A stretch of 64,000 bases of DNA from Rhodoglobus sp. (GTDB taxonomy: Bacteria; Actinomycetota; Actinomycetes; Actinomycetales; Microbacteriaceae). The translations under genes and the position numbers were made by a program. The notes below the pieces were generated by a model that saw only the letters and a list, made by a program, of their open reading frames with translations, did not search any database and was not told where the DNA came from. The stretch is from assembly GCA_025463515.1 (NCBI GenBank), contig JAODAQ010000053.1:62735-126734 (forward strand), written 5' to 3'. Of this stretch, positions 8,481 to 41,914 are shown one piece after another (within the stretch, counting starts at the first letter, position 1; every line of letters starts with the position of its first letter).

Positions 8481-8553
8481 TGGGCCCGGTGGGGCTCGAA
8501 CCCACGACCCGCGGATTAAAAGTCCGATGCTCTGCCAGCTGAGCTACAGGCCC
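8481..8553 (-). tRNA. tRNA-Lys (anticodon UUU)
   Basis: The reverse complement folds as a cloverleaf. Acceptor GGGCCUG/CGGGCCC, D arm GCUC..GAGC, anticodon loop CUUUUAA, T arm GUGGG-UUCGAGC-CCCAC, discriminator A. No encoded CCA. Confidence 0.9.
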
Positions 8554-20429: not shown

Positions 20430-20612
20430 CAGCGGGACCCCGCGAGCCCGCGGGCAGCCGAGCTCTCCCGCGCGCCCGCGCCGCCGTGCGTCCCGGCGTC
20501 GACCCAGGCCTCGGCGCGGGCCTCCGTGCGGGCTCCGGCCGCCGTGCGTGCAGCCGTCGACCCAGGCCCCCGTGCGGGCTCTTGGCGCGGGCTCTTGGCG
20601 CGCCCGCAGCGC

Positions 20613-25413: not shown

Positions 25414-26186
25414 TCCCAGCTGAATCCCTGGGGGCTCACGGCGCCCCATGCCACTGTCAACTCGCCGAGACGCCACCTCGCTTTCGTCCCCAGGATCGGC
25501 CACGTCTCCTTCATCGACGAGGCCACCGCGACCCATCGCTGCGACGGGCCGTACACACCCAAGGGTGCGTGCACCGCCCACCAGCGATCGAGGTCGAGCA
25601 GATACCGGTGAATAGATTCGCCGGGGACGTTCCTGTGGATGAGAACCTTCGGCAGCCGCTCAGCGACGATGGACGGCTTGTCGAGGTCGGCCAGGCGGAG
25701 CGAAACGGTGAGGGTCTGTGGGCCATCGGCCGTGACATCCACCCAGCTGGCTACCCGGCCGACCTCGTTGCACGTCCCCTCCACAAGCACGCCGCCCGGC
25801 TGCAGTCTCCCCACCATGCCGCGCCACGCGTCGAGCACCTCCGACTCGTCGTACTGTCGCAGGACATTGAGCGCACGGATGACCGTGGGGCTGTCGCCCG
25901 GCACCTCGAACCCGCCGAGCCGGAAGCTCACGCCAGCCCGTGCACTCTTCGACGCCAGCGCGACCCGCGCGGGCTCGATCTCGATGCCGACGACCTTCAC
26001 GTCCGGCCGTCTGTGAGAGAGGCGGTGATACAGCTCGAGAGTGGTGGTGGCGGATGCCCCGTACCCGAGATCCACGACCAGCGGCGTCTCGGCGCGGCGC
26101 AGGGCGGGCAGTTGCGCGATCCACCTGTCGATGCGGCGGAGGCGGTTGGTGCCGGTGGTTCCGCGCGTGACCTGGCCGATGGGCAT
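25410..26186 (-). CDS. Class I SAM-dependent methyltransferase
   Basis: ATG 26186 forms an ATGA overlap with the hepT stop. Motif I is VVDLGYGAS. Confidence 0.7.
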   Translation of the reverse strand: MPIGQVTRGTTGTNRLRRIDRWIAQLPALRRAETPLVVDLGYGASATTTLELYHRLSHRRPDVKVVGIEIEPARVALASKSARAGVSFRLGGFEVPGDSPTVIRALNVLRQYDESEVLDAWRGMVGRLQPGGVLVEGTCNEVGRVASWVDVTADGPQTLTVSLRLADLDKPSIVAERLPKVLIHRNVPGESIHRYLLDLDRWWAVHAPLGVYGPSQRWVAVASSMKETWPILGTKARWRLGELTVAWGAVSPQGFSWD

Positions 26187-26524
26187 CAGAGCGCACGTTT
26201 CGTGCGGGCGAGCTCGCCTATCTGCGGGAAATCCGTGGCGACTGTCTCCCACAGCACATCCAGATCAATGATGTTGTAGTGGTGAACGATCTTGTCGCGA
26301 TTCTTGGCCGCGAATGACCAGACTGGTTCAGAGAATCGTTGAGAGTCGAGCTGGGTCAATTGCTTCGCCACTTCGCCGAGCCGATTGCTGAGCGCCTCGA
26401 ATGCGAGACGGATCGCAATGTCGTCGTCGAAGGCGATGCGCCCTCGCGCGACCAGTTCGGCTGCGGCTTGCAGGGTCTTCTCGAGATCTTCGAGCAAGCC
26501 CTCGGCTCGATCGTCCGCGTTCAT
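26186..26524 (-). CDS. hepT: HepT (DUF86/HEPN) toxin
   Basis: 112 aa with the R-x4-H motif (NRDKIVHHY). ATGA overlap with the upstream mntA. Confidence 0.8.
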   Translation of the reverse strand: MNADDRAEGLLEDLEKTLQAAAELVARGRIAFDDDIAIRLAFEALSNRLGEVAKQLTQLDSQRFSEPVWSFAAKNRDKIVHHYNIIDLDVLWETVATDFPQIGELARTKRAL

Positions 26525-26991
26525 AAGGGGATCGACTGGTCGAGCATCGCTTTGTCCCGGGGTCGAGTCAGATCGAGCGCTGAGCGAGTTATGACATCCA
26601 CGGGACGCCCGAGTACCTGTTCCAGGTCTGTCTCGAACCCCGCGATATCGAACAGCGAAGCACCTGGCTTTGCATCGACCAGGAAGTCGATGTCGCTGTC
26701 GAACCGTTGCTCGCCGCGCGCGACGGAACCGAACACGGCGACGTGATCGAAGCCCCATACGGTGCCGAGGCGTTTGATCAGGTCACGTCTGGACTGAATC
26801 TGCTCTAGGCCTACTGTTCCTGCCGCGCTGTTCTTCAGTTCCAAGTACACCGAGTAGGGGAGTATCGCGGCCTCTGGCTTGCGGTGCGAGCCGATGATTG
26901 CGACGTCGATCTGGTGAGCCGTCATCCCATCCACGAGCGCGGAAAGACTGCTGCGGGCCTCCGCCATTCCCATCACCCGATCGTCCATCAC
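26521..26991 (-). CDS. mntA: MntA-type nucleotidyltransferase antitoxin with an N-terminal Phd/YefM-like domain
   Basis: N-terminus AEARSSLSALVD...IGSHRKPEAAILPYSVYLEL is Phd/YefM-like. NTase motif GSVARGEQRFDSDIDFLV. The start could instead be an internal ATG. Confidence 0.8.
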   Translation of the reverse strand: MMDDRVMGMAEARSSLSALVDGMTAHQIDVAIIGSHRKPEAAILPYSVYLELKNSAAGTVGLEQIQSRRDLIKRLGTVWGFDHVAVFGSVARGEQRFDSDIDFLVDAKPGASLFDIAGFETDLEQVLGRPVDVITRSALDLTRPRDKAMLDQSIPL

Positions 26992-27002
26992 GCAATTCTA
27001 CC

Positions 27003-27030
27003 AAAAATGTACATATTTACGCACATTTTT
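27003..27030. promoter_or_regulatory. AT-rich inverted repeat (candidate TA operator/promoter)
   Basis: AAAAATGT-N12-ACATTTTT, with an internal TGTACA. It lies 12-40 nt upstream of mntA in an otherwise GC-rich context. Confidence 0.35.
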
Positions 27031-27108
27031 TCACATCGGACGATACGCCTTCTTCTCGCATCGTGAAACCCCTTCCCGGTCATCCGGCCATCGTCTTAGC
27101 GTCGAAGC

Positions 27109-27456
27109 ATGGCAGTGAAACTGAACAAGCCCGCACTCGAGCACGCTCGTTCGCTCGTGCGCGCCGGCAAAGTGGTGAGGGACGAGCGCGACGCCTGGAG
27201 CGAGGATGCGCCGAGCGCGTCAGACGAGAACGCCTACGTCGACAAGCACGGCTGGACCGAGTACTCGCACTGGCACCTCGGCATCGACACGGATAAGACG
27301 GACGAGACCAAGGGGCACTACGAGTTCCCGTTCGGCGACTTCACAAAGGTGCACCGGTGTGCCGTGATCTCGCTTGAGAGCCGTGCCGCGCAGTTCGACC
27401 ACGACGACATCGCGAAGGCCGCGAAGGAACTGCTGGAGCTGATCGACAAGGACTAG
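27109..27456 (+). CDS. Hypothetical protein
   Basis: 115-aa ORF with coding-like codon usage. No motif recognised. Confidence 0.5.
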   Translation: MAVKLNKPALEHARSLVRAGKVVRDERDAWSEDAPSASDENAYVDKHGWTEYSHWHLGIDTDKTDETKGHYEFPFGDFTKVHRCAVISLESRAAQFDHDDIAKAAKELLELIDKD

Positions 27457-28152: not shown

Positions 28153-28821
28153 TTAGTCGTCGAGGTCCGACGTGCTGCCGCTGCACATGGCGAACGCGTA
28201 CGCGCCAGTCGCGGTGTTCTCGGAGATGACCTTGCCGTCGATGGTGATCTTGCAGCTGATCGTTCCGCCGTCAGCACCCGTGCTCGCCGACAGCGAGTAG
28301 ATGTTGAAGTCGAAGGCGCCGCCGCGCTCGACGTCGGAGGTGATCGACCATGGCAGTGGTGCGTCCGCGACCTGGGACGTTCCGCTGTTGTTGTCGTCGT
28401 AGGTCGAGTAGGTGATGTTCGACGCGGTGGCCGTGTCGCCGCTCACTTCGTAGACGAGCGGGACGAGCACGGAGGCGGCCTCTTCGGCCTGATCCATGTC
28501 GTCCTTGACGCTGCTGGCGACGGTCGCGATTCCGACGAGGCTCACGATGAGCCCGACGATGATTGCGAGGATGCCCAGCGCGAGGCCGATCGCGGGCGTG
28601 ACCTTCTTGCGGTTCTTGGCGACAAGCCCGGCGATGGCGAGGCCGATGGCGACGAGGGCCGGGACCCACGCGATGAAGCTCAGGAAGGGGATGATCGCGA
28701 AGAGGAAGGCGACGGCACCGACGATGAGGGAGCCGAGGCCGACGGGGTTGCCCTGCTTGGTCGCGGGCGGCGGGACCGGCACGGACGAATCGGGCGTGCT
28801 GGGGGGAGGGGTGATCGACAT
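28153..28821 (-). CDS. Membrane protein (DUF4190-like N-terminus, beta-rich extracytoplasmic C-terminus)
   Basis: 222 aa with a Pro-rich N-terminus, three TM helices, and a C-terminal domain containing two Cys. Confidence 0.65.
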   Translation of the reverse strand: MSITPPPSTPDSSVPVPPPATKQGNPVGLGSLIVGAVAFLFAIIPFLSFIAWVPALVAIGLAIAGLVAKNRKKVTPAIGLALGILAIIVGLIVSLVGIATVASSVKDDMDQAEEAASVLVPLVYEVSGDTATASNITYSTYDDNNSGTSQVADAPLPWSITSDVERGGAFDFNIYSLSASTGADGGTISCKITIDGKVISENTATGAYAFAMCSGSTSDLDD

Positions 28822-28954
28822 TGAGGACCTTTCGAGTCTGACTAGGGTCCTCAGAGATTATCGGATTCCTCAACTTCCGCTGCGCCACCGGGCCGCAGAG
28901 AGGCAACACGAACAGGGGCTAGGAGCAGAGCGCTCGCGACTACTCTCGAAAGGG

Positions 28955-29386
28955 ATGGAGTCATGGGCGAGCAGCCCAGCAGTCCGCAAGTCGATGCTGG
29001 GCAACAAGCGACGCGACACGCAGATCGAACTGCGCGTCCGCCGGCTGCTCCACGCCCGTGGCCTCCGCTACCGAGTCGACTACGCGCCCCTCGACAAGCG
29101 CCGCCGCGCAGACATCGTCTTCACCCGCCAGCGGGTCGCTATCTTCATCGACGGCTGCTTTTGGCACGGATGCCCCCTGCACTACATCCAGCCCAAGACG
29201 AACGCCCACTACTGGTGGCCGAAGATCGAGCGCAACATCGCCCGCGACCTCGAGAACACGCACAGACTCGGTGACGCAGGGTGGGCGGTCGTGCGGTTCT
29301 GGGAGCACGAGGACCCCGACGAGATCGCCGACTCGATAGCGGAACTGATCGCGAGCCTCCGCGCCCAGAGCAGCCTCGCGTCCTAG
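28955..29386 (+). CDS. vsr: Very-short-patch repair endonuclease Vsr
   Basis: [32 protein letters not shown]...ADIVF...[13 protein letters not shown]...W.KI..N..RD...L...GW.V.RFWEH. ATG 28955. Confidence 0.85.
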
Positions 29387-29409: not shown

Positions 29410-30156
29410 ATGACCCACACGCTCATCCTGCTCCGCCACGGCAACTCCGACTGGAACCAGAAGAACCTCTTCACCGGATGGGTCGACGTGCGCCTCAGCG
29501 ACCAGGGCGTCGCCGAGGCGAAGCGCGCGGGTGAGCTCATCGCCGAGTCGGGCCTCAAGCCCGACATCCTCTACACGAGCGTGCTGACCCGCGCGATCCA
29601 GACGGCAAACATCGCCCTGGATGTCGCGGACCGCGCCTGGCTTCCGGTCAAGCGGTCGTGGCGCCTCAACGAGCGTCACTACGGCTCGCTCCAGGGTCTG
29701 GATAAGGCCGAGACCCTCGAGAAGTACGGCCCCGAGAAGTTCATGGAGTGGCGCCGCAGCTTCGACGTCCCCCCGCCCCCTCTCGACGACGACGCCGAGT
29801 ACTCCCAGGTGCACGACGAGCGCTACATCGGAATCGACGGCGAGATCCCGCGCACCGAGTCCCTCAAGATCGTGATCGACCGGATGCTCCCCTACTGGGA
29901 GTCGGACATCATCCCGTCGCTCGCCTCAGGGCAGACGGTCCTGGTCACTGCGCATGGCAACTCGCTGCGCGCGCTGGTGAAGCACCTCGACGGCATCTCC
30001 GACGAGGAGATCGCCGAGTTGAACATCCCGACGGGGATTCCGTTGGTGTACGAACTCGACGACGGTTTCAAGCCGACCGGTCCAGCGAAATACCTCGATC
30101 CCGAAGCCGCAGCCGCGGGTGCTGCGGCCGTGGCGGCGCAGGGGGCCAAGAAGTAG
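29410..30156 (+). CDS. gpmA: 2,3-bisphosphoglycerate-dependent phosphoglycerate mutase
   Basis: [32 protein letters not shown] and AHGNSLRAL motifs. Confidence 0.95.
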
Positions 30157-33100
30157 TCTCGCAGTCAGGATTCCAACCCGAATCGAGTCCCACTTGTTCA
30201 GTCTTTGTTGCTTTTTCTGTCCCAACAACGAGTTCGAGGCGCGGACGCTAGACGACTCTTGTGCCAGTTGCGGGCGCCAGTACGACTATCCCCTTGCGCA
30301 TGCGCCGGAACGGATCGGGACCTACGAAATCGTCAAGCCGCTTTCTCGCGGCTTTTATGCGGCAACTTTCGTGGCAAAGTATGGACAGCTAGGCAACCTT
30401 GTCGTGCTCAAGGTAGCGCCAGTCGACCTCTATAGGTTCTTTGGGAAAGACTTTCCAGCAGAGTGCACACGCCACCAAGAAGTAGCTGATGGCAGTGAAC
30501 ACTTGGTTCAGATTCGGGACTATCTCGACGTGGACGTCGACTTTGGCGATGCGACCCTGCGTTGCCATGTCGCGGTCCTGGACTACGTCAAGGGAGACCC
30601 CTTCGATGAGTTCCTCGATTCAGCGCCGTCCTTGGAATCGCTCGGCCAAGTCGCCATCGACCTCCTGCAGCTTCTGCAGGAGCTGAAGGATGCGCGCTTC
30701 TATCACAACGACCTGCACGACCAGAACATCCTCGTCCAGTCCCTATCCGGAAGCGCTCGACGACACGGTGCTCTCGACCCGTCTATCCGCGCGATTGCGA
30801 TCGATCTTGGTTCGACCGCGTCTGTCGATCGACAGGACCAGCAACATCTCGGTGATCTCCAGGCAGTTGTTATGCATCTTTTCGGGATCGCCCAAACGGT
30901 CCTAGAGTCGGCCACCATCGACACCTCGGAATATCGGATCGCTTATGCGATCGACGAAGTAAGTCACATGTTGTCACCGGACCGTGCAAGTCAGCGAGAT
31001 CCAGATTTCGATGGGGCGATAAGAAGGATTCGAGCTGGCTTGGATCCTGCGCGAAGTGGATGGTCAACGCCGCAGGTTCTTCAGCGGTTTGACGATTCTT
31101 ACAACGCTCAAACACTTCACCCTTGGCTATTGCCGCGCCTGCTAGTCGACCCGGAGGGGGAGTGGCTCGCAAGCGTGAGTGTTCGGGGTCCTCAGCTGAT
31201 TACGGGCATGCGTGGTTGCGGAAAGACGATGCTTCTTCGCGCGATGGACATTCACGCGCGCATCATCCAGCACGAGATTGACAGCAAACCGTCCATCGCG
31301 GACGCGCTTCAACACGACGGCTACGTGGGGCTGTACGTCTCGTGTACGCGTCTTCTTGACCCCCTCGGACAGGTCGGAAGCGCTATGCATGAGCCGTACG
31401 CGCGACTCCTTGTCGCGTACGCCCGCGAGGCATGTGCAGGACTTCAACACATCGATGACCGTCAACCTGGCGCGATCCGGGACGACGCGGCATCGGAGAT
31501 TGGCGACGTTTGTGCGTCCGCCCTCAACGGGGCTGACCTGTTGCGTGGTGCGAGCAGTCTCACGGAACTCGAGCAGAGATTGCAGCGAGTTCTCAGCTCG
31601 TTGGATCGGGGCGAGTTGACCTTCAAGATGCTCAAGAATCCTGCGATCGCTTTTCCGCAGCTAGGCGAAGCTGTCATAGCTGCCGTCCCTGGTCTATATG
31701 GCAGCCAAGTCCTGTTCTTGCTCGACGACGTGTCTACGCGGCACGTCTCAAAGGAAGACGTCGATGAACTGATTTCGGCGCTTCTATTCAGCCATCCAGG
31801 ATCAGCCTTCAAGATGACGACGGAAGCACAGACATTTCTTCGTTCCCCCGGTCAAATCGAGATAGCTAGATCCGGTCGCGACTACCAAACGTTCGATCTC
31901 GGGGCCGAGGTGAACGCGAAGCTGAGAGACAAGAACTCGTCGGAAGGGCTCGCATTCGTGAGCCAGATCCTTGAGAATCGCGCGGAGCATTTTGGCTTGC
32001 ATCCGACCCATAAGCCCATGCAGCTGTTGGGTGACGCAACGCTCGAATCCATCGCCCAGAACATAGTTTCCACTTCCAAAACATCACGTGAAAAGAAGTC
32101 CATCTACCGGGGACTTTCGGCTCTTAGGGCTGTTTGCGTCGGCGACATCGGCGACGTCATTAGTATTTACGACCTGATGCTTTCGAAGGCTCGCGATCGC
32201 AGGGAGATGCCCATTGCCGCCGCTACCCAATCCGAGGCGCTCCAAGAGTTTTGCGCGCGCCGGTTGTATCAGGTGAACAGACGTGACGGTCGCTTGAAAG
32301 ACTTCGCCCTGTCCTTTGCTGGTGCTGCTCATGAACTGCTCGTTCGATCCTCGGCGAACGGTGGACGACTGCGGCAGTACAACTCGATCTACGTTCGGCT
32401 GTCCCCCGATGCAACCTCGACGCAATATGAGCAGATCCGCCAACTTGTGGACGCTGGAGTTTTTGTACTGCGCGGTGGCACAGAGACCCCGCGCACAAAG
32501 TCGCGGGATCGCGATCCGATGCAGCAGTTCGCATTGACCTTCCGTAAGCTATTCGGACTCTCAAGCTTCATCGGCCTGGCGGAGCGCGACCGCTTTGAGC
32601 TGTCGGGGCCTGAGTTGGCCGAGTGGCTAGACTCCCCGTCGCGGGGGAGGGAGATACTGTTGCGCAACCTGGGAGGAGATGTTGACTCCGTTGCGAACGA
32701 CGAGGAATCCGGAATCGAGGTGACCCTGAACTCGTCGCCACTTGCCCTTACTGATCGCCCATCAGAGTTGAGTTACCCCGCCGAATCGATACCTTCGCCA
32801 CCCCAGAATCCTCCGGCAGATCCCTTCCTGGACGGACACCGTCCGTCGGGATGGACTCTCTCCGATGCACAGCTGGAGGAGCAACCCATTGAACACGTCG
32901 TTTTGGGACTTGGATTTGAGGAGCGCGCACTCGACTCAGCCAAGGAGCTGCTGGAAAGGACCCGGCCCAGCAGCGCAACATTGGTTAGGTATGAGTTGCA
33001 GGGCTTGGGCGCTGAGATCGAGAAGTTGGTGCGATCAAAAGTTGGCCATGTCGAAGTCATTGACTACGCTGCTGCTTCTGGGAGGACGTGGACTCCGCGC

Positions 33101-33790
33101 TTCGACGGTCTGACCCTTGTCGATGCAAGCGGCCTCGCAAAAGGGGCTTTGTTCAGGGCTGTTTTGGAAGCACTCAAGACGGGATCAGTAGTTGTCTCTT
33201 CGACTAGCGCACAGCACTACTATCCTGCGGACAAAGAGATCGAGGAGGTGCTCTCCGCCAGCAACGATGACTCGTTCGAATTGGTCCAGCGCTTGAACGA
33301 CCTCTGGTCAGGAGAGCAAGGCCCCTACACCTCTACGGAGCTACTTGGGAGGCTTTCTGATGGTTCCAAGCCACGTGTACTAGTTGCGGCTTCTTCGGCA
33401 AAGCCCGAGCGCCTTCTTTCGCTGCTTGAGGCTCGCGAATCAGACCACGTTGCTCTATCAGTCACGACCGCCAACAGCTCTCGTGGGGATTTGGCGAGGC
33501 TGGCAGCGGCGGTTGCCGTTCCCGACAGTCAAGCGGAGACAATTGATGCCAATGACCCATTGCAAGAACTCGAGTTCATAGCCCGCCAGTTCGCCATATA
33601 TTCGCCGAAGAGCGGATTCGAACTTGAGGTTGGTCTCACCGGTTCGAAAATGCAAACGGTTGCTTGCGCCGTTGCTGCAGCATGCCTTCCCTTGACCAAG
33701 GCCTGGTATACATCGCCGGCAGTCTTCGATCCGATCCGATTTAGCTCCGGGGTTGGGTCACGTCGTACGTATTTGTTCCGGATTGGCTAA
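30119..33790 (+). CDS. Large multidomain protein: Zn-ribbon + protein-kinase-like + P-loop NTPase + tandem Rossmann-like C-terminus
   Basis: 1223-aa ORF. CxxC...CxxC at aa 31-51. Kinase-like [16 protein letters not shown] and IDLGS. Walker A GMRGCGKT (31205-31228) and Walker B VLFLLDD (31709-31729). Start uncertain: GTG 30119 overlaps gpmA by 38 nt; the alternative is TTG 30194. Confidence 0.8.
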
Positions 33791-33888
33791 AGGCGCAGCG
33801 CTTTTCTCGCCGTGCAAATGACCCTATTGGTTGAGACTTAGTCGCGGCAGGCGTCCAGTACTCTGGCTTGACTGATCCTGGGAGTGCA

Positions 33889-35523
33889 ATGTCTGAGTTG
33901 GAACCGCTCATTCTGACCTTCGACCCGCAGACCGTGGACCATCTGGGCGCGAAGATGTACTCACATCTACCGAATGCGCTCGCGGAACTTGTCGCAAACT
34001 CTTACGACGCGGATGCCAAACACGTTCGTGTCGTCGTCGAAGGCAATGGCTCCATCTCGATCACGGATGACGGGCATGGAATGTCCAGGGAGGACGTACG
34101 GGAGAAGTACTTGCACATCGGCAGGAATCGTCGCACTGATGAGAGTGGCCTAACGGAGAGCGGCCGTCGCCAAGTGTCCGGGAAAAAGGGTCTTGGCAAG
34201 TTGGCGCTTTTCGGAATCGGCAAACGAGTCGAGTTGAAGACGACTCGAGCTGGCTCTTCTGCCCGAACACAGATAGTTCTCGACTATGACGAGATGAAGC
34301 AATCCACTGGGCCGTACCGGCCAACAGAAACGCAAGCTTCGATCTTGGAAGGTAGGCATGGAACCGTCGTGCGACTGAGTCAGCTCAAGAGATCCAGTGC
34401 GGTTTCCGCGGCGAGCGTGGCCAGAAGCCTTGCGCGACTATTCAATTATGTTGACGAGGAATTCGAAGTAACGATCGTTGGTCCGGAAGGGACCGAGTAT
34501 CGAGTCACGCCCGAGTCACGACTTGATGCAATCGAAGTGGAGTTCAGCTGGACCTTTCCAGACGACGGCGGCGTCGACAATCCTGACTTGAGGGATCTTG
34601 GTGTGGGTGGTCGTGTCGTATCAACGCCCAAACCAGTTCCACAGTCAATTCGCGGCATAGCACTTTATGTGAACGGACGTCTGGCGAATGAAGCTGACTA
34701 CTTCGACTCCTCGGCGTCTAGCTATGCGTACTCGTACTTGTCTGGATATCTGAACGTCGATTATCTAGACCGTCTCGAGCCTGATGTGATCGCGACGGAC
34801 CGAAGAGCCCTTGACTGGGGGCGCGACGAGACCATTGACCTTCGTGTGAAGCTGACCGACTTTGTTACCTGGATAGCGGGTGACTGGCGCCGCCGGCGCC
34901 GCGAAGCTAGCGCTGTGCGAGCCACGGAGGTATTGGGTGGCTCGACGGAAGAGTGGGTTTCCTCCATCAAGACTGAGGAAGGTGCTGTCGTCCGCGAACT
35001 TGTGGAGGCAATCGCGTCAGAAGAAGTCGAGATATCCGCCGAGCAACAGGGCGCGCTACTTTCCCTCATGAAACGCGCGGTGCCACCGCACGCCGAGTAC
35101 ACCTGGCGCCACCTACACCCTTCGATCCAGGACGCTACGCGTGACCGCTACCTAATAGACGATTTTTACGGTGCCGTCCAGGAAGGCATTAAGCGATACG
35201 TGAACGCCGCGCGCGATAAGTCGGGTGTTCCTCACGATGAAGCCACCAAGATCGTGGTGAACGCATTTGGCGAGAGTGGACGACTCCACGTTTTCCAACG
35301 CTTCACGGAGAGTTTCTCTGAGGCGACAGCAAAGAATGTCGAGGAAGGGCAGAAGCACGTTTCCATGGGAATCGTGGCTGGCTTCAGAAATCCGATGGCA
35401 CACGAAGAAGTGCTTCGATTGCATGAGAGCGGCGCATTCACGTTCGACGACTGCTTAGATGCGCTCAGCATTGTTTCGCACCTCATGCGGCGACTCGACG
35501 AGGCCGAACTGATTGTCGAGTAA
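33889..35523 (+). CDS. GHKL (MORC/MutL-like, HATPase_c_3-type) ATPase fused to a TIGR02391/Hypoth_Ymh-like C-terminal domain
   Basis: Bergerat motifs: N box ELVANSYDA, G1 DDGHGM, G2 GKKGLGKLALFG. C-terminus has HPSI...FYGAVQEGIKRY...GFRNPMAHE (R-x4-H). ATG 33889 is preceded by GGGAG; the track ORF starts at TTG 33868. Confidence 0.8.
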   Translation: MSELEPLILTFDPQTVDHLGAKMYSHLPNALAELVANSYDADAKHVRVVVEGNGSISITDDGHGMSREDVREKYLHIGRNRRTDESGLTESGRRQVSGKKGLGKLALFGIGKRVELKTTRAGSSARTQIVLDYDEMKQSTGPYRPTETQASILEGRHGTVVRLSQLKRSSAVSAASVARSLARLFNYVDEEFEVTIVGPEGTEYRVTPESRLDAIEVEFSWTFPDDGGVDNPDLRDLGVGGRVVSTPKPVPQSIRGIALYVNGRLANEADYFDSSASSYAYSYLSGYLNVDYLDRLEPDVIATDRRALDWGRDETIDLRVKLTDFVTWIAGDWRRRRREASAVRATEVLGGSTEEWVSSIKTEEGAVVRELVEAIASEEVEISAEQQGALLSLMKRAVPPHAEYTWRHLHPSIQDATRDRYLIDDFYGAVQEGIKRYVNAARDKSGVPHDEATKIVVNAFGESGRLHVFQRFTESFSEATAKNVEEGQKHVSMGIVAGFRNPMAHEEVLRLHESGAFTFDDCLDALSIVSHLMRRLDEAELIVE

Positions 35524-35533
35524 TCCCACGTAG

Positions 35534-36607
35534 TTACAGCGCCTTAGCAAGAGAGCGACCGATCGCGGCACCAAGAGGGATTGGAACCGCATTGCCAATT
35601 TGGCGGGCTATTGCTGTTTTGGACCCCACAAAGCGATGAGATGGCGGAAAGCCCTGAAGAGTCGCGGCTTCATAATGTGTGATCGCCCGGTTGGCCGTGG
35701 GGTGCAAATAGCGGCCCTTTTCTGGTTTGAAGAACTCGGTCCTGATGGTGACCGAAGGCTTGTCTAGACGAAGCCTCCCCATGACGTCTCCCGAACCAGA
35801 ATTGTGATTAACCCAACAAGGTGCAAGAAGGTGCGGTGGGAGATTCTTCCGATTCCCTCCCGGAGGTATCTCTTTGAACCTAGCGCGCGAAAGTGATGAA
35901 TAGTTGCGCCCAAGATGGAGCTCATCTGCGGTGAACGAGCCTTCGAACGTGTGCCCGTCGAACTCATACTTTCGCCCCTGCGGGAGTTCCACACCATTCA
36001 CTTCGTGAGGAATCCCTGCGAAAGCTTCGGCAACATTGATGTGATTGCCAAAATGTGTCAATTCAGGGAATCCAGGAAACTCAAGGTCACGGTGGTGACC
36101 GATCAAGACGGCGCGTTTTCGGGCTTGGGGAGCACCGAAATCCGCGGCATTGAAAATTCTGTGCTGGAAGTCGTAGTCCTTCAGGAACCCATTCGTGACC
36201 GCTGCTTGAAACTGCTCAAATTGCGGCGACTTCGCGAATGCGGCCACGTTCTCGACGACGAAATACTTCGGCTTGGTTGCGAGGATGGCGTGCCCGTATT
36301 GCTCCCAAAGGGAGTTTCGCTCGTCTTCTACTTCTCGCTTGCCAAGAGTCGAGAAGCCTTGACATGGCGGCCCTCCGACTATGACATCCACGTGGGTTGG
36401 GACATCCCCTGATCTGAGCCAGTCTTGGATCGGAAGCGCTTGTACGATCCCTTGTCCGAATGTCGCCTCATAGCTGGCCGCGGCCGAGCGGTCCCATTCA
36501 ACTGCGGCAATGGACTTGAATCTGGAGGAGGCGGCATGCAGGCCAGCGGTCATGCCGCCTGCTCCAGCGAAGAGATCGAGCACTCGAATAGCGGAATGAG
36601 AGCCCAT
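35534..36607 (-). CDS. dcm: DNA (cytosine-5)-methyltransferase
   Basis: Motif I DLFAGAGG, motif IV GGPPCQGFS, motif VI VVENV, motif X RQIGNAVP. Convergent with the GHKL gene across a 10-nt gap. Confidence 0.9.
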   Translation of the reverse strand: MGSHSAIRVLDLFAGAGGMTAGLHAASSRFKSIAAVEWDRSAAASYEATFGQGIVQALPIQDWLRSGDVPTHVDVIVGGPPCQGFSTLGKREVEDERNSLWEQYGHAILATKPKYFVVENVAAFAKSPQFEQFQAAVTNGFLKDYDFQHRIFNAADFGAPQARKRAVLIGHHRDLEFPGFPELTHFGNHINVAEAFAGIPHEVNGVELPQGRKYEFDGHTFEGSFTADELHLGRNYSSLSRARFKEIPPGGNRKNLPPHLLAPCWVNHNSGSGDVMGRLRLDKPSVTIRTEFFKPEKGRYLHPTANRAITHYEAATLQGFPPSHRFVGSKTAIARQIGNAVPIPLGAAIGRSLAKAL

Positions 36608-37028
36608 GTATTAGGAGTGTAGCCGGCATGAGAGGTCCCTGGGGACATAATGCGAATCGCGTCTACAAACAGTGACTAGCCCAAAGCGTAGGGCAGCGCG
36701 TCATGCGCGTCGAGAGCCCATTTTCCTGCTTCGTGACAAAACTACGGAGGTCGTTGAACCTACCGGAAGGTGCGAGCTGGCCTGGGATAGTCGCCAGCTG
36801 TGCGCCCCGACCTGGGTGTAAAGGTGTGGACGCGCAGGAGCTACGGTCGTCCGTCGGCACGCCGCAAGCATGGTGCGCGGCCGCCCGCCGTCGGCGAACC
36901 GCGCCGCCGCCCCGATGATGCGGTCCGGGGTGGGGAAGCGTTGGGCGCCCATGTCCTGATCCTCCTGATCGATGAGGGCGACTGCGGTCTGTCCGAACGA
37001 TGACGCCGGCTGCCGATACCCTGACCCC

Positions 37029-40000
37029 ATGTTCCTGCTCGATGGCACGGTCGTCACGAGCCCGAGCGACCTCACCACCGCCGCGCACTGCGAGTTCGCG
37101 TTCGCCCGGCAGCTCGACGCGAAGCTCGGGCTCATCGAGATCGAGCGGGTGCCGCGCGATCCGCTCGAGGCCAGGGCCGCAGAGCTCGGGGACGAGCACG
37201 AGAACCGGTGGCTCGAGTACTACCGGGCGAACAAGAGTGTTGTCGAGATCGAGCGGCCGAGCATCCGGCGCGATGCACTGAGAGAAGCCGCCAAAAAGAC
37301 GGAAGAAGCGTTCCGCAACCAAGCAGAGGTCGTATTTCAGGCCACATTCTTCGACGAGTCAGACCCCACCGCACCGATGATCGGGTTCGCCGACTTCATC
37401 GTGCGGCAGCCCGACGGGCGGTATCGGGTACAGGATACGAAGCTGGCGCGGTCCGTGAAGGTGACGGCGCTGCTGCAGCTCGCGGCGTACTACGACCAGC
37501 TCGTGCGGCTGAACGTGCCGGCGGATGAGACCGTCGAGCTGATCCTCGGGACCGATGAGGTGGTGCCGCAGGACGTGAACGACATCCTCCCGGTGTACCG
37601 GAAGCGCAAAGCGCGGCTACACCAGATCGTGGCCGAGCGAGCGGCGGCGACGCAGGCAGCGCAGTGGGGCGACCGCCGGTACTCCGTCGACGGGCGGTGT
37701 GAGTTCTGTGAGCCGGAGGTGGAGGCATCCCGAGACCTGTTGCTTGTCGCCGGGATGCGGCTGGCTCAGCGGGCGAAGTTGATTGAGGCGGGCATCGTCA
37801 CCATCGACGACCTCGCAGTCTCAGAGGATGCGCCGGCCGGTCCCAGGCAGCAGGCCGCGCTGCAGCTGCAGGCGACAGGGCCGATCCCGCCGTTCGTCAT
37901 GTTCGCGCCCGAGCTCATCGGGCACCTGCCCGAGCCCGACCCGGGCGACATCTTCTTCGACTTCGAGGGCGACCCGCTCTACCGCGAGGAGCACACCTGG
38001 GGCCTCGACTACCTGTGGGGGCTCGTCGATCGCGATGAGACGTTCACCGCGTTCTGGGCACACGACTTCGAGGCCGAGCGAAAAGCACTGGAGCAGTTCC
38101 TGGCGTGGGTGACGGAGCGGCGCAAGCAGTACCCGAACATGCACATCTACCACTACGCCTCCTACGAGCGCACCCACCTGCTCACCATCTCCGCGCGGCA
38201 CGGCGTCGGCGAGCACATCGTCGACGGCCTGCTGCGGGATAACGTGCTCGTCGACCTGTATCCGCTGGTGAAGAAGACCGTGCGGGTGGGCGGCCGCTCG
38301 TACTCGATCAAGAAACTCGAGCCGCTGTACATGGGGGAGGAGCTGCGGGAGAGCGAGGTCGCGAACGCCGCGGCATCCATCGAGCAGTACGACCTCGCGA
38401 TGCGGTCGGAGCCCGCCGAACAAACCAGGCTGCTCGAGACGATCGCCGACTACAACCGGTACGACTGCGTCTCCACGCTGCGGTTGCACGAGTGGCTGCT
38501 GGCCCGGGCGAGCGAGTTGGGCGTGCAGCCCGGCATGTACGCCGAGCCTGTGGAGGAGCGGCTGCCGTTCGAGCCGAGCATCCTGGCCGGGCAGCTGCTG
38601 GCGCTGGAGGACGGGTCCGGCGCCTTCGCGCTCGCCTCCGCCGCCGTCGACTACCACCGCCGCGAGAACAAGAGCTTCTGGTGGGAGCACTTCGCCCGCC
38701 TCGAATACCCGGTCGAAGAATGGCAGGATGCCCGGGGCGTATTCCTCGTCACGAGCGGCGAGGTCGTGTCCGAGTGGTTCACCAAGACCTCGGCGAGCTA
38801 CCGGACGGTAAAGCTCCGCGGCGAGTGGGCCCCCGGCAGCGCCACCTCCACCGGCGAGGCGTTCACGCTCTACGACCCGCCCGGCCCCTACCGCGACCCC
38901 CGCATCGGCGGCGGGCTGCGCCTGCCCGTCAACGCCTCCAGCGTGTTCCCCGACGAGGACGACCCCGACGTCGTCTACGTCACCGAGCGCTGCCCCGGCG
39001 GCCAAGAGCCATGGGCCCGGATGCCGCTGGCCATAGCCCCCGGACCGCCTCCCCGCGCCGCCTCCCTCGACCAGGCCATCGAGACCGTGGGCGCGCGGCT
39101 GTGCGAGGATCCGTGGCCGAAGTCCTCGATCGGCGACATCCTGCGGCGCACCCCGTCGCGCACGAAGTCGGGCGTGCTGAGCCCGGCCAACGGCGACGTG
39201 CGAGCGGCCGTTGTCACGAGCATCCTCGATCTCGATGATTCGTACCTCGCCGTGCAGGGCCCGCCCGGTACCGGCAAGACCACCCTCGCCGCCACCGTGA
39301 TCACGACGCTCGTGCGCGACCACGGCTGGCGCGTCGGCGTCGTCGCGCAGTCGCACAAGGTGGTCGAGAACGTGCTGCGCGCGGTGGTGAAGGCCGGGCT
39401 CGACCCCGACCGGGTCGCGAAGGCCCCGCCGACCGGCGGCAGCTACTCCGACGAGCCCTTCTTCGAGCTGCAGAAAGACACGCACCAGCTGTTCGCGCAG
39501 CGCAAGCACACCGGCTATGTCATGGGCGGCACCGCCTGGGACATGACCAACACCAAGCGCGTCGGCCGCCTCCAGTTCGACCTGCTCGTGATCGACGAGG
39601 CCGGCCAGTTCTCGCTCGCCGCGACCGCCGCCGTGAGCGTGAGTGCGCGCAATCTGCTCCTGCTCGGCGACCCGCAGCAGCTGCCGCAGGTGAGCCAGGG
39701 CACCCACCCGGCGCCGGTCGACCAGTCCGCGCTCGGGTTCATTGCCGACGGCCACGCGGTGCTGCCGCGCGAGTACGGCTACTTCCTCGCCAAGAGCTGG
39801 CGCATGCACTCCGCGATCACGGCGCCCGTCTCCGCCCTGGCCTACGACGGCGCCCTCCGTTCAGCCCCCAGCGCAGACGCCCGGATGCTCGTAGGCGTCG
39901 CTCCCGGACTCCATCCCCTCCCCGTGGCGCACCACGGCAACGCCACCCACTCCGTCGAAGAGGCGGCTCATGTCGTCGCCCTCGTGGAAGCGCACCTCGG

Positions 40001-40358
40001 CCGCGACTGGAACGGCACGCCCCTCACGCAAGACGACATCATCGTGGTCACGCCCTACAACGCGCAGGTCGAGTGCATCCGACTCGCGCTCGCCGACTAC
40101 CCCGGCGTGCGGGTGGGCACGGTCGACAAGTTCCAGGGGCAGGAGGCCGTGATCTCCATCGTGTCGCTCGCGGCGTCGAGCCCGGTCGACGTTCCGCGCG
40201 GGCTCGACTTCCTGCTGTCGCGCAACCGCCTCAACGTGGCCATCAGCCGGGCTCAGTGGGCGGCGTACCTGCTGTACTCACCCGAGCTGACCGACTTCCT
40301 GCCGTACACGGCGGAGGGCGTGGCCGACCTGAGCCGCTTCATCCGGCTGGTGTCTTAG
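37029..40358 (+). CDS. RecB-like PD-(D/E)xK nuclease + RNase-H-like exonuclease + SF1 (Dna2/Upf1-like) helicase fusion (TM0106-family-like)
   Basis: GFADFIV...QDTKLA...QLAAYY (37392-37490), FFDFEGDP (37944-37976), Walker A GPPGTGKT (39258-39281), LLVIDEAGQ (39582-39608), VDKFQGQE. ATG 37029 (MFLLDG...) is preferred over ATG 36972. Confidence 0.85.
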   Translation: MFLLDGTVVTSPSDLTTAAHCEFAFARQLDAKLGLIEIERVPRDPLEARAAELGDEHENRWLEYYRANKSVVEIERPSIRRDALREAAKKTEEAFRNQAEVVFQATFFDESDPTAPMIGFADFIVRQPDGRYRVQDTKLARSVKVTALLQLAAYYDQLVRLNVPADETVELILGTDEVVPQDVNDILPVYRKRKARLHQIVAERAAATQAAQWGDRRYSVDGRCEFCEPEVEASRDLLLVAGMRLAQRAKLIEAGIVTIDDLAVSEDAPAGPRQQAALQLQATGPIPPFVMFAPELIGHLPEPDPGDIFFDFEGDPLYREEHTWGLDYLWGLVDRDETFTAFWAHDFEAERKALEQFLAWVTERRKQYPNMHIYHYASYERTHLLTISARHGVGEHIVDGLLRDNVLVDLYPLVKKTVRVGGRSYSIKKLEPLYMGEELRESEVANAAASIEQYDLAMRSEPAEQTRLLETIADYNRYDCVSTLRLHEWLLARASELGVQPGMYAEPVEERLPFEPSILAGQLLALEDGSGAFALASAAVDYHRRENKSFWWEHFARLEYPVEEWQDARGVFLVTSGEVVSEWFTKTSASYRTVKLRGEWAPGSATSTGEAFTLYDPPGPYRDPRIGGGLRLPVNASSVFPDEDDPDVVYVTERCPGGQEPWARMPLAIAPGPPPRAASLDQAIETVGARLCEDPWPKSSIGDILRRTPSRTKSGVLSPANGDVRAAVVTSILDLDDSYLAVQGPPGTGKTTLAATVITTLVRDHGWRVGVVAQSHKVVENVLRAVVKAGLDPDRVAKAPPTGGSYSDEPFFELQKDTHQLFAQRKHTGYVMGGTAWDMTNTKRVGRLQFDLLVIDEAGQFSLAATAAVSVSARNLLLLGDPQQLPQVSQGTHPAPVDQSALGFIADGHAVLPREYGYFLAKSWRMHSAITAPVSALAYDGALRSAPSADARMLVGVAPGLHPLPVAHHGNATHSVEEAAHVVALVEAHLGRDWNGTPLTQDDIIVVTPYNAQVECIRLALADYPGVRVGTVDKFQGQEAVISIVSLAASSPVDVPRGLDFLLSRNRLNVAISRAQWAAYLLYSPELTDFLPYTAEGVADLSRFIRLVS

Positions 40359-41165: not shown

Positions 41166-41184
41166 CCCAGAGGCCGGGAGCCGG

Positions 41185-41218
41185 GGTTTCGATACGGCCG
41201 CGGACGGCCTACTCAACC
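41185..41218 (-). repeat. REP-A unit (reverse)
   Basis: GGTTTCGATAC-GGCCGCGGACGGC-CTACTCAACC. Confidence 0.85.
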
Positions 41219-41224
41219 CGCCGG

Positions 41225-41258
41225 GGTTTCGATACGGCCGCGGGCGGCCTACTCAACC
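41225..41258 (-). repeat. REP-A unit (reverse), tandem with the previous unit
   Basis: GGTTTCGATACGGCCGCGGGCGGCCTACTCAACC, identical to 52909-52942. It ends 2 nt before the phoU stop. Confidence 0.85.
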
Positions 41259-41260
41259 CG

Positions 41261-41914
41261 CTAGTTCGAGGGGGAGACCCAGTCGCCGGTCGCCAGGTAC
41301 TGGACCTTCTTGGCGATGGAGACCGCGTGGTCCGCGAAGCGCTCGTGGTAGCGCGACGCGAGGGTGGCGTCGACCGTGTCGACGGCCGCGCCCTTCCAGG
41401 TCTCGCCGAGCACCTTGTCGAACACCGAGAGGTGCAGCGCGTCGATCTTGTCGTCGTCGTTGCGGATCTCCTCGGCGAGCTTGACGTCCTCCGTCTTGAG
41501 GAGCTCGACGAGCTTGCGGGCGATCGCGACATCCAGTTCGCCGAGCTGGGCGAACGTGCCGCGCAGCGACTTCGGGACGACCTTGTCGGGGAAGCGGTAG
41601 CGCGCGAGCTGCGCGATGTGCTCGGCCATGTCGCCCATGCGCTCGAGCGACGCGGAGATGCGCAGCGCAGAGACGACAATGCGGAGGTCGCGGGCGACGG
41701 GCTGCTGGCGGGCCAGGATGTTGATGGCCAGCTCGTCCAGCTCGGCGGCGGCGGTGTCGATCTTCTCGTCGTCGGCGATGACCGTCTCGGCGAGGGACAC
41801 GTTGGACTCGTTGAAGGCTCGCGTCGCGTTCTCGATCGACTCGGCCACGAGGGTCGAGATCTCGACGAGGCGGTCCTGCACCTCTCGCAGTTCCTGCTGG
41901 AATACTTCGCGCAC
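41261..41914 (-). CDS. phoU: Phosphate signalling complex protein PhoU
   Basis: 217 aa with two PhoU repeats (E/DxxxD motifs, e.g. RMGDMAEHI and RFADHAVSI). Confidence 0.95.
   Translation of the reverse strand: MREVFQQELREVQDRLVEISTLVAESIENATRAFNESNVSLAETVIADDEKIDTAAAELDELAINILARQQPVARDLRIVVSALRISASLERMGDMAEHIAQLARYRFPDKVVPKSLRGTFAQLGELDVAIARKLVELLKTEDVKLAEEIRNDDDKIDALHLSVFDKVLGETWKGAAVDTVDATLASRYHERFADHAVSIAKKVQYLATGDWVSPSN

Follow-up and report, generated by a model that had tools for sequence, protein, structure and literature searches.

To our knowledge, all characterised CARF sensors read cyclic oligoadenylates (cOA), or S-adenosylmethionine-AMP (SAM-AMP), from type III CRISPR-Cas, and the known CARF outputs are nuclease, protease, membrane and transcription functions. 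A family in which the CARF sensor fold is fused to an AAA+ ATPase and a protein kinase, and which stands beside a C5 DNA cytosine methylase and not beside CRISPR, is represented by a gene at 30194-33790 (+) of a 64,000-nt stretch of DNA (hereafter the window) from a Rhodoglobus sp. metagenome-assembled genome (MAG; Microbacteriaceae, GCA_025463515.1, contig JAODAQ010000053.1, 62,735-126,734 of the forward strand). The name KAC (kinase-ATPase-CARF) was coined here for this gene. The same architecture has been described as a "small family" composed of a Zn ribbon, a Ser/Thr/Tyr-type kinase, an AAA+ domain with an Arg inside the P-loop and CARF (Makarova et al., 2014; Front Genet 5:102, PMC4012209). 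In our literature search, which did not cover the 2020 CARF census, no experimental study of this CARF_STK_AAA family was found; the kinases mentioned in the CoCoNuT paper and by Kaur et al. (2020) are different ones. KAC matches the PADLOC model PDLC01925 "CARF6--CARF_STK_AAA" nearly from end to end (E=0, 1312 bits, aa 29-1217 against positions 4-1181 of 1187), and R365 in its GMRGCGKT motif is the P-loop Arg of the published description. It is thus almost certainly a CARF_STK_AAA (CARF6) member, sharing the whole architecture along the model without any family-level difference. An earlier reading of the window from its sequence alone, here called the original prediction, did not recognise the exact fusion, which had in fact been described in 2014 and has a PADLOC model of its own. 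The architecture itself is therefore already catalogued, and the parts worth following are the linkage to Dcm, Vsr and a phosphorylase-like gene and the reading of the C-terminus as a tandem CARF. In the latter respect KAC also departs from the 2014 description, because its C-terminal module was modelled as two CARF-like halves with no winged helix-turn-helix (wHTH) after them.

The AlphaFold2 (AF2) model of aa 915-1223 (residues are numbered throughout from GTG 30119, the start of the maximal open reading frame, ORF) consists of two Rossmann-like halves, with a predicted local distance difference test (pLDDT) of 91.7 and a predicted template modelling score (pTM) of 0.92. The best Foldseek match was the cA4-activated nuclease Can1 (6sce; E 6e-6, probability 1.0, query TM-score (TMq) 0.52), and the next matches were the CARF domains of Csm6 and Cam1 and the ring nuclease Sis0455 with probabilities of 0.97-1.0. 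CARF domains have a Rossmann-like core of six strands and a conserved basic residue past strand 4, often within the signature [DN]X[ST]XXX[RK] (PMC4012209). In the first half of the KAC module, DASGLAK (aa 1002-1008) lies just past strand 4 (model residues 84-88) and fits this signature, and in the second half LTGSK (aa 1173-1177) follows strand 4 (model residues 254-259). Both D1002-x-[ST]-G-x-x-K1008 and L-T-G-S-K1177 are invariant in an alignment of 29 sequences, 43-56% identical to the window protein, from which all residue conservation given here was taken. Like Can1, KAC has two CARF domains per chain and hence a possible intramolecular ligand pocket; we infer that the two halves form a predicted intramolecular pseudo-dimer that would bind a nucleotide-derived ligand. 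The CARF Rossmann fold and the basic residue past strand 4 are common to KAC and to proteins of the Can1, Csm6, Cam1 and Crn type. Unlike these, KAC carries no nuclease or membrane effector, its output being a kinase connected through an AAA+ ATPase; it is found without CRISPR or cyclase context, and there is no similarity at the sequence level. A profile of the tandem CARF retrieved 436 representatives among 1.84 billion proteins, and among the matches listed the module lies at or near the C-terminus and full-length proteins are of ~1200 aa. The ~300-aa C-terminal sensor postulated in the original prediction has thereby gained an identity, namely a sensor-type domain resembling a tandem CARF.

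At the other end of the protein, the two cysteine pairs of the Zn ribbon are CFFC (aa 31-34) and CASC (aa 48-51; together nt 30209-30271). No variation occurs at C48 and C51, and hardly any at C31, F32 and P35, in agreement with the ribbon proposed originally. In the kinase domain, VVLKVAP carries K98 (30410-30412), the catalytic loop is HNDLHDQN (aa 196-203, 30704-30727), and DLG occupies aa 229-231 (30803-30811). The motifs listed in the original prediction were all found in the translation at their coordinates; only for the loop, quoted as YHNDLHDQN at 30704-30727, does the range cover HNDLHDQN and leave Y195 one codon earlier. K98, E115, H196-N197-D198, N203 and D229 of the DLG are invariant. 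Pfam Pkinase matches the sequence weakly (E 0.01, 15.7 bits against a cut-off of 31.7). The AF2 model of aa 26-330 (pLDDT 84.6), in contrast, matched at least 1,997 protein-kinase chains at E<=1e-3 in Foldseek, with PknG first at 5e-10, and a family profile of the N-terminus searched against the PDB matched protein kinases exclusively. There is no APE motif in the activation segment, where ~17 residues separate DLG from an invariant G245-D246 pair; this pair, together with invariant R273, may take over the role of the APE segment. The N-terminus is therefore modelled as a trimmed Hanks-type kinase whose short activation segment is devoid of APE. The absence of a kinase fold from aa 67-260 had been named as a finding that would speak against the proposed kinase-like core; structure prediction recovered that fold, and the core is of the true Hanks type according to AF2 and Foldseek.

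Mycobacterium tuberculosis PknG, the best structural match of the kinase model, has a Cys-rich, rubredoxin-like metal-binding module directly before its kinase core, and its alignment with the family profile begins upstream of that core. Unlike KAC, it has TPR after the kinase and neither ATPase nor CARF, and it regulates metabolism and virulence and is not island-borne. Eukaryotic-like kinase folds in a defence setting are also found in PglW of BREX type 2, Stk2, PD-T4-6 and Mad6 of MADS. PglW and Mad6 also act beside a DNA methylase. The similarity of KAC to PD-T4-6 (E 1.4e-4) and Mad6 (E 0.024) is marginal, and the accessory domains differ. The kinship with PglW and Stk2 that had been suggested does not extend, for them or for PD-T4-6, beyond the kinase fold (E 1e-4 to 0.05). 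In addition, the methylase partner of KAC is a C5 methylase, and the BREX and MADS core genes (PglX, PglZ and BrxL; mad1-8) are absent from the window, none being found in the cassette around KAC.

The central part of KAC contains Walker A GMRGCGKT (aa 363-370, 31205-31228), with its Arg within the P-loop, and Walker B VLFLLDD (aa 531-537, 31709-31729); G363, R365, G366, C367, G368, K369, T370, D536 and D537 are invariant. The P-loop NTPase that had been proposed is thus confirmed by Pfam (PF24389, 1.2e-18), which identifies an AAA+ ATPase of the ORC/Cdc6-like type, AAA_16 reaching only E 0.048. A profile of aa 331-860 gave nothing above noise in the PDB and no solved relative, so the AAA+ assignment rests on Pfam. 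No match to KAC was obtained with the NACHT, NB-ARC and nSTAND models of Pfam or with the Avs models of PADLOC. KAC does share with STAND/Avs proteins the order of effector, NTPase and sensor and a Walker B ending in DD. However, its NTPase is ORC/Cdc6-like by Pfam and its sensor is a small Rossmann/CARF module instead of a repeat array, and the STAND/Avs affinity suggested in the original prediction was not upheld. The helical region that follows the ATPase is strongly conserved, with motifs including CVGDIGD and DRFELSG, and may be of the winged-helix type; a wHTH is mentioned for the CARF_STK_AAA family (PMC4012209).

Members of the KAC family occur in 123 of 185,579 species genomes, patchily and in at least nine phyla. 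Genomic context was studied in 81 non-redundant loci by unbiased clustering of all neighbours within 7 kb; 57 of these loci have complete flanks, meaning 7 kb or more of sequence on either side. A C5 methylase (Dcm) is present in 70 of the 81 loci and Vsr in 43. A gene of ~400 aa is found in 60, on the same strand as KAC and at a median of 8 nt upstream of it. In these 60 loci it abuts or overlaps the KAC start, for instance at L003:8803-10008, L002:8787-10001 and L013:1429-2649. It encodes a homolog of pyrimidine-nucleoside/thymidine phosphorylase (E 1e-39 to 1brw over almost the entire length), hereafter PyNP-like, which keeps the STGG, R and SKK motifs and for which PADLOC holds no model. 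Every other genuine gene family is restricted to at most 12 of the 81 loci, and the only larger cluster, seen in 14 loci, consists of antisense shadow ORFs. Several top-ranking neighbour families were discarded as antisense shadows of Dcm, PyNP-like and UvrD genes in high-GC DNA. Where both flanks are complete, Dcm accompanies KAC in 51 of 57 loci, and Dcm or the PyNP-like gene in 56. Divergence of the partners follows that of KAC (Spearman 0.57 for Dcm, 0.58 for PyNP-like, 0.29 for Vsr), and none of 500 permutations reached these values. The adjacent methylases are diverse, with pairwise identities of 18-100%, and the restriction-type genes beside Dcm vary between GHKL proteins resembling restriction endonucleases (REases), Mza, UvrD/PD-(D/E)XK and NaeI. 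Other neighbours include integrases, OLD-like ATPases, GajB-like helicases and, in a few loci, BREX genes. No cyclase or cas cluster was present in the 81 neighbourhoods. KAC is thus specifically co-inherited with Dcm in defence islands and is not linked to CRISPR-Cas or CBASS.

Among mobile elements, one phage collection contained no KAC member, and one plasmid collection contained a single full-length one (L088, Loktanella salsilacus NZ_CP072995, 439558-445929). There, KAC carries the label "hypothetical protein", and after it come a 164-aa ORF and genes for a DNA cytosine methyltransferase and a NaeI-family REase. A complete Mza set (MzaB, MzaC, MzaD and MzaE by PADLOC) adjoins KAC in 9-12 loci, including L023, L033, L040, L042, L052 and L076, in which Dcm and Vsr are apparently shared.

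Considered together, KAC may be a nucleotide-gated ATPase-kinase switch that serves 5-methylcytosine restriction-modification and defence modules, a reading to which, as a whole, we give about an even chance. In the scheme that we infer, from ligand and order of events to kinase substrates and anti-phage outcome, the tandem CARF pseudo-dimer would bind a nucleotide-derived ligand that arises or changes during infection. Binding would be relayed to the AAA+ module, shifting its ATP-dependent conformation or oligomeric state, and the N-terminal kinase would be released to phosphorylate proteins of the host or the phage, or else effectors encoded alongside KAC, for instance the phosphorylase-like or GHKL-HEPN protein, resulting in growth arrest or restriction. 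Virus-induced modified nucleotides have been proposed as CARF ligands (PMC4012209). The neighbours have pyrimidines in common (5-methylcytosine, T:G repair, PyNP), which suggests a pyrimidine-derived signal for KAC, as a lead only. More tentatively still, and with well under an even chance in our estimate, Dcm, KAC and (where present) the PyNP-like protein could constitute a distinct, unnamed immune system keyed to 5-methylcytosine. Such a system would respond, through its tandem CARF, to a nucleotide signal other than cOA, for example a pyrimidine-derived one that the PyNP-like protein may make or remove, and its output would be protein phosphorylation without a nuclease. If true, a CARF sensor would for the first time be seen to work outside cyclic-oligonucleotide signalling, and for the first time with a kinase as its output. 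If active, it would join nucleotide second-messenger sensing, Ser/Thr phosphorylation and the marking of self and non-self by methylation, in the form of a concrete, clonable three-gene system. PrrC, in PrrC-EcoprrI, is an NTP-sensing abortive-infection effector within a restriction-modification locus, and in Detocs a kinase relay feeds into a nucleoside-phosphorylase effector. The resemblance of KAC, an ATPase-kinase in Dcm loci that usually have a PyNP-like partner, to these two systems is one of functional analogy and not of homology.

Several observations weigh against the reading of KAC as a nucleotide-gated switch. The CARF likeness is structural only, with a TMq of 0.52 to Can1 and of ~0.3 to proteins with a single CARF. 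In Foldseek, the C-terminal model also matches generic Rossmann enzymes. A sequence profile of the C-terminus found no match in the PDB, and the CARF assignment rests for this reason on structure prediction and the PADLOC model. In the second half the Lys stands at +3 and not at +4 from the conserved Thr, and strand 1 is followed by an invariant G-F-E-x-R in place of the polar S/T typical of CARF, an invariant Ser (S940) lying one helical turn beyond. Part of the correlated divergence of KAC and its partners could stem from shared host phylogeny. In addition, the window copy is without the PyNP-like partner found in 60 of the 81 loci, and with its TTG start, neither preceded by a Shine-Dalgarno (SD) site nor served by a separate promoter, it may be poorly expressed.

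Alternatively, KAC could itself be the restriction-like arm of a system that tells self from non-self by Dcm marking. Its ORC/Cdc6-like and helical (possibly winged-helix) parts would recognise DNA in which the cognate 5-methylcytosine is missing and so set off the kinase, CARF serving only to modulate the response. This overlaps with the switch model, the primary trigger being DNA instead of a small ligand, and we regard it as unlikely. ORC/Cdc6-type AAA+ proteins with a winged helix bind DNA, and Dcm co-diverges with KAC. A wHTH has been noted in the family (PMC4012209). Of the complete-flank loci, 17 are limited to Dcm, PyNP-like and KAC and 12 others to Dcm and KAC; GHKL, UvrD-type and Mza genes were not found there. 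Minor clusters nevertheless reveal a nuclease in some of these minimal loci, such as NaeI in L083, and in many loci, including the window, a separate restriction-type gene stands beside Dcm, which makes KAC look accessory. Furthermore, no DNA-binding or methyl-reading domain was identified in KAC, the central-region profile found nothing in the PDB, and Dcm varies between 18 and 100% identity while KAC is conserved, which argues against sequence-specific reading. A connection to cOA signalling, with KAC as an ancillary effector of a distal type III CRISPR-Cas or CBASS pathway whose cyclic tetra- or hexa-adenylate (cA4/cA6) would bind the CARF pseudo-dimer and turn on the kinase, seems quite improbable. 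The best structural matches (Can1, Csm6, Cam1, ring nuclease) do bind cOA, and PADLOC places the family among CARF accessory models. Set against this, the window contains no CRISPR array and no cas10 or cyclase among the flanking genes scanned, the constant partner in the 81 neighbourhoods, which are free of cyclase and cas clusters, is a C5 methylase, and the tandem-CARF profile matches the KAC architecture alone among the 1.84 billion representatives.

We attach little credence to the view that KAC works as a STAND/Avs-type protein, whose C-terminal module would recognise a phage protein, whose NTPase would oligomerise and whose kinase would thereby be activated. The tripartite layout of N-terminal enzyme, P-loop NTPase and C-terminal non-catalytic module is real, and the hhhhDD form of its Walker B resembles that of STAND proteins. 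Yet it is the ORC-CDC6-like AAA+ model that matches instead of any STAND/Avs model, the C-terminal module is a Rossmann/CARF fold of the small-ligand type and not a TPR, WD40 or LRR array, and the linkage to Dcm would be left unexplained. Least credible of all, in our judgement, is that the window copy has no present function and is a passenger left stranded, poorly expressed or in decay, or that the family is a housekeeping kinase unrelated to defence. This would fit a TTG start without SD or promoter, a cassette edge right at the start codon, the missing PyNP-like partner and the label "hypothetical protein" given to relatives by RefSeq-type annotation. Against it, the 1198-codon frame is intact with all catalytic residues present, the closest relative has the same TTG start, and the family is patchy and island-borne amid restriction and defence genes.

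Integrity of the gene is supported by its relatives. A search of 5.8 billion proteins at E<=1e-3 returned 934 homologs; the best 120 of these are nearly all 1190-1290 aa long with a query coverage of 96-100%, and therefore the KAC frame is conserved and not split. A split or frameshift in relatives, which had been named as a finding that would speak against the proposal, did not appear, and the single long ORF at 30119-33790 (+), with 1223 codons from GTG, stands as originally proposed. The earlier remarks on its start were correct as well: GTG 30119 overlaps gpmA by 38 nt, and TTG 30194, 37 nt past the gpmA stop (TAG, 30154-30156), has no obvious SD. The TTG is favoured because homolog N-termini align 2-5 residues ahead of the CCFxCP motif, because a TTG occupies the equivalent position of the alignment in the closest relative (cTTGTTCAGT in both), and because nucleotide similarity to that relative ends upstream of the shared TTG. 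KAC is thus likely to start at TTG 30194, which gives 1198 aa. No promoter or terminator consensus was detected at the gpmA/KAC junction, where counts were at or below the shuffled expectation. Transcription of KAC by read-through from gpmA is plausible on these sequence grounds.

The first in-frame ATG of KAC is M252 (30872). The public record of the same protein (P0001, Rhodoglobus sp. MAG) begins at this residue and comprises 972 aa; since M252 lies past DLG, this record lacks both the Zn ribbon and the catalytic core of the kinase. Public annotation thus hides the kinase of KAC, and comparable mis-calls may conceal other family members. Many of the shorter "homologs" in databases may be equivalent mis-calls or fragments. 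Table 1 summarizes the features of KAC and its surroundings in the window.

Table 1. Features of the KAC locus in the window, with positions, strand and supporting evidence.
Feature	Position	Strand	Evidence
Vsr-like endonuclease, upstream of gpmA	28985..29386	+	tblastn 5e-25, Pfam Vsr 6.3e-18
gpmA (phosphoglycerate mutase), native	29410..30156	+	NCBIfam NF010718 5e-129, above cut-off, from ORF aa 44
Foreign cassette, ~6.4 kb (KAC, GHKL-Ymh, Dcm)	30200..36600		Drop in GC and in GC at third codon positions (GC3)
KAC gene	30194..33790	+	1198 aa from favoured TTG; maximal ORF from GTG 30119
Zn ribbon CCFFC...CASC (aa 30-51)	30206..30271	+	Cysteine conservation, family description (PMC4012209)
Predicted Hanks-type kinase domain (aa ~63-300)	30305..31018	+	AF2, Foldseek, PDB profile, invariant residues
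AAA+ ATPase, ORC/Cdc6-like (aa 326-632)	31094..32014	+	Pfam PF24389 1.2e-18
Conserved helical region, possibly winged-helix (aa 633-879)	32015..32755	+	Conservation; wHTH in PMC4012209
Variable Pro-rich linker (about aa 880-915)	32756..32860	+	Gap-rich, least conserved (alignment columns ~905-1010)
Tandem CARF-like module, two Rossmann-like halves (309 aa)	32861..33787	+	AF2, Foldseek, signature
GHKL ATPase (HATPase_c_3) + Hypoth_Ymh, 551 aa	33868..35523	+	Pfam 4.5e-22, 2e-18
C5 DNA cytosine methyltransferase (Dcm type)	35534..36607	-	Pfam DNA_methylase 2.4e-57

In the window, KAC is carried by a cassette with sharp edges, in which GC drops from about 0.66-0.70 to 0.53-0.60, the flanks spanning 0.64-0.72. 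The GC3 values of its three genes are 0.63, 0.62 and 0.58, whereas gpmA, the Vsr-like gene and the helicase gene, which lie outside the cassette, have values of 0.84-0.91. The cassette is horizontally acquired; its left boundary falls within the 37-nt gap between gpmA and KAC, the 3' end of gpmA abutting the cassette. Around the closest KAC relative (55% identity) the same genes are found, with the GHKL-Ymh protein 58% and Dcm 70% identical, in a different order, and therefore the trio travels together. The GHKL-Ymh protein carries the Rx4H motif RNPMAH (GFRNPMAHEE), which suggests an RNase of the HEPN type, and its N-terminal 220 aa, this part only, resemble the BbrUII/HgiDII REase family (NCBIfam). 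Two ideas about this 551-aa protein were rejected: comparison showed that it is not a homolog of the ~400-aa partner, and it is not a plain substitute for the PyNP-like gene, since 11 loci have both and 5 have GHKL only. The PyNP-like partner itself is absent from the window. The Vsr-like gene has native composition (GC3 0.86); as listed, its ORF (28496-29386) starts long before the Vsr domain. Dcm-type modules may insert repeatedly at the gpmA locus. No convincing direct or inverted repeats flank the cassette, and no tRNA was found within 24-40 kb of it, the one Rfam match, a tRNA at 8481-8553 (-), being distant. The 64-kb window has no CRISPR array, and no cyclase, cas10 or cas genes were found among the flanking genes scanned, which did not include every ORF.

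Other features of the window were recorded as well. Between Dcm and the helicase gene there is a 219-aa ORF without Pfam match at 36663-37322 (-). The helicase gene itself, directly to the right of the cassette at 36972-40358 (+), has native composition (GC3 0.91); in its 1128-aa product an SF1 helicase (AAA_11/AAA_12) is combined with PD-(D/E)XK and RNase H-like domains. Tandem repeats without obvious role are found at 41180-41261 (40 nt x 2, 97% identity) and 20462-20594 (58 nt x 2.3). A second low-GC patch (26000-27400, GC 0.60-0.63) contains an ORF for a HepT-like protein (HEPN toxin) at 26186-26758 (-) and a low-GC3 ORF at 26898-27296 (+), and may be a toxin-antitoxin module.

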